A stretch of DNA of 64,000 nt from Escherichia coli (GTDB lineage Bacteria; Pseudomonadota; Gammaproteobacteria; Enterobacterales; Enterobacteriaceae), in the NCBI RefSeq assembly GCF_044647545.1, contig NZ_CP172818.1. One strand, 5' to 3'. Made by a program: the position numbers and the translations under genes. This document shows, in pieces, positions 46,051 to 46,552 of the stretch. The notes under the pieces were generated by a model. The model did no database searches, was not told where the DNA came from, and worked only from the letters and a program-made list of their open reading frames with translations. The stretch's first letter is position 1, and every line of letters starts with the position of its first letter.

Positions 46051-46488
46051 ATGACGTCACTCTCTCGTCCGCGCGTGGAGTTTATATCCACCATTTTGCA
46101 GACCGTACTCAATCTTGGCCTGTTGTGCCTCGGCCTGATTTTGGTTGTCTTCCTCGGCAAAGAAACGGTGCATCTGGCTGATGTGCTGTTCGCGCCAGAA
46201 CAAACCAGTAAATATGAGCTGGTAGAAGGGCTGGTGGTTTACTTTCTCTATTTCGAATTTATCGCGCTGATTGTGAAGTACTTTCAGTCCGGTTTTCACT
46301 TCCCGCTACGTTACTTTGTCTATATTGGGATCACCGCCATTGTGCGCTTGATCATCGTCGATCATAAATCGCCACTGGATGTGTTGATCTACTCGGCAGC
46401 GATCCTGTTACTGGTGATCACCCTGTGGTTGTGTAATTCGAAACGGCTGAAGGGGAGAAAAAAAGGCGCTCCGTGGAGCGCCGAATAA
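46051..46488 (+). CDS. psiE: Phosphate-starvation-inducible inner-membrane protein PsiE
   Basis: [50 protein letters not shown]...; its 3' end runs through the malG terminator hairpin. Confidence 0.85.
46455..46482 (-). terminator. Rho-independent terminator of the malEFG operon
   Basis: Minus strand reads GGCGCTCC-ACGG-AGCGCC followed by TTTTTTTCTCC, about 70 bp downstream of the malG stop. Confidence 0.7.
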
Positions 46489-46552
46489 CAGTCACAAGTT
46501 GGGATAACGTAAGTTGAGGGTGCAGCGGCATAACATTGGCAGAACAACATCT

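Follow-up and report, generated by a model that had tools for sequence, protein, structure and literature searches.

An apparent read-through of psiE into the malEFG/MalH terminator of a xylE-less Escherichia coli genome is most probably an assembly error

In the psiE–malG region of Escherichia coli NZ_CP172818.1 (assembly GCF_044647545.1), the reading frame of psiE runs through the terminator hairpin of the opposing malEFG operon, which raises the question of whether this overlap is a biological feature of the strain or a feature of its record. A first-pass annotation, made from the sequence alone, had taken it for a biological feature and proposed a lineage that lacks xylE and possesses a PsiE C-terminal variant as well as a bidirectionally placed terminator. 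Here, we analyzed the junction within a stretch of 64,000 nt (hereafter the window), whose features are listed in the table below. The ORF list confirmed the gene ends that had been annotated for psiE (46488) and malG (46553), and the junction is thus one of convergent 3′ ends, with psiE on the + strand and malEFG on the - strand. A tblastn search revealed no XylE-like sequence across the 64-kb window, in agreement with the annotated absence of xylE from the psiE–malG locus, and the comparison with K-12 likewise confirmed that xylE is located between psiE and malG in that strain. The junction in the window is of the GGGAGTAAAAAAAGGCGCTCC type without xylE and is identical to it save two missing bases.

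Features of the psiE–malG junction (positions are counted from the first base of the window)
Feature	Position	Strand	Description or basis
psiE ORF as in the record	46051..46488	+	145 aa, PsiE family; ORF list
malG, last gene of malEFG	46553..47443	-	296 aa, identical to K-12 MalG (WP_001252058.1)
Sites of the two missing bases	46452..46458	none	Alignments to FDAARGOS_497 and K-12
A7 on the + strand, corresponding to the U7 tract of the malEFG/MalH terminator	46458..46464	-	Sequence, terminator scan
Terminator hairpin	46465..46482	-	Terminator scan, fold, identity to K-12, covariation
Putative MalH sRNA, malG 3′ UTR-derived, 104 nt	46458..46561	-	Both ends inferred
Further cluster of five missing bases (T, T, G, T, T), yjbT–psiE intergenic region	45915..45918	none	Alignments

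The psiE product of the window matched the PsiE family profile PF06146 from Pfam over residues 19-131 (E = 1.7e-22; 80.3 bits versus a cut-off of 23.9), and its residues 1-134, encoded at 46051-46452, showed 100% identity to K-12 PsiE in a tblastn comparison. The sequences diverge after residue 134, where the canonical enterobacterial C-terminus (...KRLKRE-stop, 136 aa) is not found and the last 11 residues of the window PsiE stand in place of the normal RE-stop. The closest complete genome is that of FDAARGOS_497, an ST131-like and xylE-less strain, whose psiE encodes a protein of 136 aa (WP_000202902.1) that is the same as in K-12. In the alignment to this genome, the reference sequence CTGAAG-C-GGGAG-T-AAAAAAAGGCGC faces CTGAAGGGGAGAAAAAAAGGCGC in the window, and at the sites themselves (46452..46458) CTGAAG-C-GGGAG-T-AAAAAAA faces CTGAAGGGGAGAAAAAAA, whereby the psiE junction is deposited as CTGAAGGGGAGAAAAAAAGG versus the canonical CTGAAGCGGGAGTAAAAAAAGG. 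One C is missing between 46452 and 46453, which shifts the psiE frame from residue 135 onward. In addition, the TAA stop has lost its T between 46457 and 46458, which removes the stop codon and leads to a reading frame that continues through the hairpin. The psiE allele of the window was present in none of the 5,426 complete E. coli genomes, among which the best full-length match had an identity of at most 98.5%, the difference being exactly the two gaps. At NCBI, the 145-aa protein is carried as WP_400165100.1 and is recorded on one contig only (4,499,902 bp). In metagenome contigs the variant junction was found in 0 and the canonical one in 3, which makes for a weak control, given only three contigs. 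Moreover, the PsiE stop directly follows the residue aligned to E136 in 80 of the 80 loci from species representatives. The proposed lineage with a PsiE C-terminal variant could not be upheld in view of these data, since a xylE-less genome that is identical over 26 kb encodes the normal PsiE and the variant is a singleton. Nor could the overlap of psiE with the hairpin be upheld as a biological feature, as it exists only by means of two bases that are missing in comparison to every comparable genome. The first-pass annotation had named identity of the K-12 PsiE C-terminus and psiE–malG spacing to those of the window as the finding that would speak against it. Such an identity is not observed, K-12 carrying xylE at this site, but this comparison misses the main weakness, which is the quality of the sequence.

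From 37815 to 64000 the window could be aligned to FDAARGOS_497 over 26,194 columns with 0 substitutions and 8 gaps. All eight gaps are bases missing from the window in a homopolymer or low-complexity context, namely one at 41342 (a T before an A-run), five at 45915-45918 (a T/G-rich stretch), and the two in psiE. It speaks against an artefact that the missing psiE bases are each located just before a homopolymer and do not represent simple homopolymer-length errors; on the other hand, they fit the record's profile of single-base drop-outs. A far larger loss was detected approximately 10 kb upstream of the psiE–malG junction, where the stretch 32578-36038 yielded a 78% alignment to FDAARGOS_497 with 885 gaps. 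Here, the share of reference bases lost was 66% for G, 10% for C, 7% for T, and 1% for A, and the G content amounts to 7-11% per kb. We know of no mutational process that strips two thirds of one strand's G's over 3.5 kb. Since the loss is beyond any such process, it has to be regarded as a consensus or assembly artefact, and the whole patch gives the impression of a gross consensus error in the source assembly.

Taken at face value, the two deletions would be real private mutations, in which case the cytoplasmic tail of PsiE would be 9 residues longer and ribosomes would translate through the DNA of the malEFG/MalH terminator. The deposited sequence does read so, the protein has its own NCBI entry, and the reading frame that results from both changes stays open up to a nearby TAA. 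Furthermore, the hairpin is unaltered and the U7 is not shortened, so that a mutant of this kind would be viable. However, 5,426 complete genomes and about 15 billion proteins yielded no second instance of the allele, the length of PsiE is invariant in 80 species, there are 0 substitutions versus 8 missing bases over 26 kb in comparison to the nearest genome, and the same record contains patches with hundreds of dropped bases. Real private mutations are therefore improbable. It could also be that xylE was deleted independently from a xylE-bearing ancestor, with a junction GGGAG|AAAAAAAGG that removed the T of the stop codon. The region 46456-46700 is 100% identical to K-12 from the malG-side AGAAAAAAAGG onward, and an AG microhomology junction would yield the missing T. 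However, such a deletion leaves the missing C six bases upstream unexplained, a B2/ST131-type genome matches both flanks at 100% over 26 kb, a K-12-type record reaches only 98.4% over the 498 nt that span psiE (45966-46463), and the other differences from the B2/ST131-type genome are base drop-outs as well. An independent deletion at GGGAG|AAAAAAA, to which we attach practically no credence, was rejected because of the B2/ST131 flanks and the C that is not accounted for. Since the allele is a singleton and the record is full of base drop-outs, the psiE extension is most probably an assembly error. We infer that the two gaps are very probably consensus errors and not private mutations, i.e., that the source assembly dropped two single bases and the extension is an artefact. 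Thus, psiE appears to run through the hairpin because two bases are missing from an error-ridden record. In general, a frameshift or stop-loss "variant" known from a single record should be compared with near-identical genomes before it is called a lineage trait.

Several further observations were made on the record and its surroundings. The G-depleted patch is homologous to sorbose PTS, SDR, and regulator genes of FDAARGOS_497, and all ORFs within it must be destroyed. Exactly at its start (32577/32578) the alignment to FDAARGOS_497 makes a jump of approximately 2 kb, and at this point the window has no counterpart of the reference sequence L005 35985-37988, which comprises most of sorE as well as a shikimate 5-dehydrogenase gene. 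A second, milder low-quality patch is located at 36278-37715 (rluF/yjbD), where 24 single-base gaps and 5 mismatches occur versus an otherwise identical reference. In the 16S/23S rRNA operon, G-homopolymers at 14167, 15805, 16728, and 16818 each have one extra G in comparison to the reference, as is typical of miscalled homopolymers. The small differences that cluster around 14508-14523 may reflect genuine variation among rRNA copies. Clusters of indels at 18522-18598 (5S–yjaB, just past the end of the rRNA operon) and 25119-25135 (aceK/iclR, near the aceK 3′ end) look like the presence or absence of short REP-type repeats and not like base-call errors. Between 37715 and 37815 the window runs straight from yjbD to lysC; FDAARGOS_497 has approximately 35 kb there, consisting of a tailed prophage that is interrupted by an IS26/ISEcp1 resistance island with CTX-M-15, OXA-1, aac(6′)-Ib-cr, tet(A), and aac(3)-IIe. 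The yjbT–psiE intergenic region harbors, at 45888-45925 and adjoining the five missing bases, a hairpin and T-run on the + strand (TGGGAATCACC...GGTGATTTTTG). In K-12, the yjbT–psiE region contains an extra repeat-like insert of about 60 nt, which is absent from B2-type genomes.

With regard to the opposing operon, the sequence GGCGCTCCGTGGAGCGCC at 46465-46482 is directly preceded by seven A's (46458-46464) on the + strand. The terminator scan called it on the - strand as a stem of 7 pairs (6 G-C) with a 4-nt loop and the tail TTTTTTTCTC, which immediately follows the stem on its 3′ side. Folding yielded the same 7-bp stem and 4-nt loop, with a value of -14.7 kcal/mol for a 49-nt segment around the hairpin. 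The position of the hairpin had thus been annotated correctly, whereas its division into 8, 4, and 6 nt had not: the stem is formed by 46465-46471 and 46476-46482, and the loop comprises 46472-46475. The hairpin starts 70 nt after the malG stop codon, and between 46456 and 46700 the window is identical to the malG end and downstream region of K-12 at 245 of 245 bases. Among 49 distinct enterobacterial sequences, 91% of the cells at the stem positions were paired, compared to 35-60% when the 3′ arm was slid, and compensatory changes (C-G/G-C and U-A/C-G) were found at two of the seven stem pairs, with a covariation score that was reached by 0 of 500 shuffles. Six of the 49 rows, which belong to the Klebsiella/Raoultella group, had been shifted by one column by MAFFT and were scored as unpaired, although their stem AGCGGCC/GGCCGCU is perfect on its own; the covariation figures are conservative for this reason. 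In K-12, this hairpin sequence is the Rho-independent terminator contained in the small RNA MalH (Iosub et al., 2020, RNA Biol, PMC8081044). Judged from its sequence, the hairpin together with U7 is the predicted Rho-independent terminator of the minus-strand malEFG operon, in line with the first-pass annotation, which had read the hairpin and A-run as an intrinsic terminator and which the full identity to the published K-12 terminator bears out.

MalH was mapped in E. coli K-12 as a 104-nt sRNA, which in MG1655 is reported to be processed by RNase E, to bind Hfq, and to regulate ompC, ompA, and MicA (Iosub et al., 2020, PMC8081044). The corresponding stretch of the window extends from the last malG codons over the stop codon and 3′ UTR to the terminator, whereby its ends (approximately 46458-46561, - strand) result from taking the 104 nt that lead up to the last base of the U-tract. 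Within the UTR, the blocks GCCACTGCAACCCTCAACTT and CTTGTGACTGT are conserved across genera. An Rfam scan of 45500-47500 matched no family at E ≤ 1, and the MalH identity is therefore based on the sequence identity to K-12 and the literature, not on a family model. On these grounds we assign the 3′ UTR between malG and the hairpin as the predicted MalH locus, which the first-pass annotation had missed. In such a scheme, a single Rho-independent terminator on the - strand (hairpin 46465-46482 plus U7) would end malEFG transcription and would also make the 3′ end of MalH, which would be cut from the malG 3′ UTR. Repeat-like elements of about 100 nt were observed inside the malG 3′ UTR of other loci (L008, L040, L045, L046, L062, L064, L065, L068, L070, L078, and the Klebsiella/Raoultella loci), where they separate the malG stop codon from the conserved 3′ blocks of MalH. 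Any MalH in these species would differ in its 5′ part.

The bidirectional placement of the terminator, as suggested by the first-pass annotation, is not borne out by the sequence. On the + strand the hairpin is followed by GAATAACAGTCAC, which contains no U-tract, and the terminator scan gave no + strand call there. Bidirectional intrinsic terminators are a class that is defined by a U-tract on both strands. As far as can be judged from the bases themselves, they support a predicted termination for the malEFG direction only. Nevertheless, the hairpin might also act on psiE transcripts, either as a terminator or as a strong pause or 3′-end-stabilizing structure, and would then be a shared bidirectional terminator. 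Its sequence is palindromic, a fold was obtained for the + strand as well (61 nt, -16.8 kcal/mol, z = -2.0), the scan of 45500-47000 gave no other + strand site resembling a terminator past the end of psiE, the layout with a hairpin at the stop codon is conserved across the species loci, and K-12 has an equivalent in the form of the xylE terminator at the psiE stop. However, apart from the missing + strand call and the lack of a U-tract in GAAUAACAGUCAC after the hairpin, the conservation of the hairpin is fully accounted for by malEFG/MalH and that of the adjoining ACAGTCACAAG by the MalH body. A role of the hairpin in psiE 3′-end formation is thus conceivable but doubtful. An even more speculative suggestion from the sequence is that in the xylE-less layout psiE transcripts would read through the hairpin and would be perfectly antisense to MalH and the malG 3′ end. 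Phosphate-starvation induction of psiE might then lower or sponge MalH or disturb malEFG 3′-end formation, and the xylE insertion in A/B1/E-type E. coli would have uncoupled both; we regard this as very unlikely.

The absence of xylE, which is the part of the earlier proposal that holds, is common in E. coli. A megablast search with 45900-46700 found psiE and malG contiguous in 1,786 of the 5,426 complete E. coli genomes, and K-12 xylE was present in 3,638 and lacking in 1,788 of them. The agreement of the two counts shows that about a third of the genomes is without xylE altogether and has not merely relocated it. Among the xylE-less genomes are Nissle 1917 and several ST131-like strains. Carbohydrate transporters including xylE have been described as enriched in the EB1A/B1A lineage versus FGB2 (Gonzalez-Alba et al., 2019, PMC6896753). 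For a comparison beyond E. coli, psiE loci were collected from 80 species representatives, and MalG and XylE were located in each. Escherichia albertii, E. whittamii, E. sp. E1V33, and E. sp. MOD1-EC7003 have no xylE and a psiE–malG gap of 98-100 nt, and the junction GGGAGTAAAAAAAGGCGCTCC is common to E. albertii, E. sp. MOD1-EC7003, and B2-type E. coli. In total, psiE and malG were adjacent in 42 of the 80 loci, 26 contained small inserts of other kinds (for the most part repeat elements within the malG 3′ UTR), 9 had xylE, and 3 could not be scored. Of the 42 loci with adjacency, 33 have a psiE TAA that passes directly into the A-run and the hairpin. Adjacency of psiE and malG is the prevailing layout in the other Escherichia species and across Enterobacteriaceae.

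The nine xylE-bearing loci belong to the Citrobacter freundii group and K. oxytoca and have the gene at the same site. The left junction in K-12 reads GGGAGTAAAAAG and is followed by the xylE terminator, and the right junction reads GAAAGAAAAAAAGGCGC, which places the xylE segment of about 1.8 kb inside the A-tract. From parsimony over the species representatives, the xylE-less state is probably ancestral in Escherichia, and xylE would have been gained. K-12-like E. coli would accordingly carry a segment of approximately 1.8 kb, comprising xylE, its promoter region, and its own terminator, lodged in the A-tract, and B2-type strains would either never have had this segment or have regained the ancestral allele. 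An old xylE polymorphism with repeated loss also fits, given the same-site XylE in the Citrobacter freundii group and K. oxytoca. The XylE proteins are approximately 93-94% (Citrobacter freundii group) and 92% (K. oxytoca) identical to that of K-12 and thus about as diverged as MalG, and because of this similar divergence an old polymorphism remains compatible with the data. In Citrobacter braakii (L023), psiE and malG are separated by about 383 nt without xylE, and the terminator is followed by ATGTTATTTTGCATT... as in xylE-bearing Citrobacter, which suggests a secondary loss of xylE in this species. In intact genomes, the psiE TAA makes up the first three bases of the A-tract from which the U-tract is copied, such that psiE ends one base-run before the hairpin. 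Thus, a stop codon built into the U-tract template of the terminator and sRNA of the opposing operon is an arrangement conserved across Enterobacteriaceae, within which xylE would have lodged later in some lineages.

The junction can be compared with four known systems. With bidirectional terminators it shares a single GC hairpin between convergent genes and an A-tract on one side; unlike them, it has no U-tract on the + strand, and only the malEFG direction looks canonical. In the K-12 psiE–xylE junction the psiE TAA is likewise situated in an A-tract that templates the U-tract of the opposing terminator, and psiE has no U-tract of its own. There, however, the hairpin is the xylE terminator (CAGCACGCCG...CGGCGTGCTG), and psiE is separated from malG by xylE. 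The malEFG terminator and MalH of K-12 recur base for base in the window at 46456-46700, including the hairpin, U7, the 3′ UTR, and the malG end. The sequences differ beyond U7, where K-12 continues with CUUUCG into the xylE promoter region, whereas intact xylE-less genomes continue with ACUCCCGC, which is antisense to the final codons and stop of psiE, and the window reads CUCCCC because the T and the C are missing. Finally, in terms of the xylE polymorphism of E. coli (EB1A vs. FGB2; PMC6896753), the window is a member of the xylE-less class, which makes up about one third of the complete genomes, and is distinguished within this class solely by the two missing bases that are private to its record.
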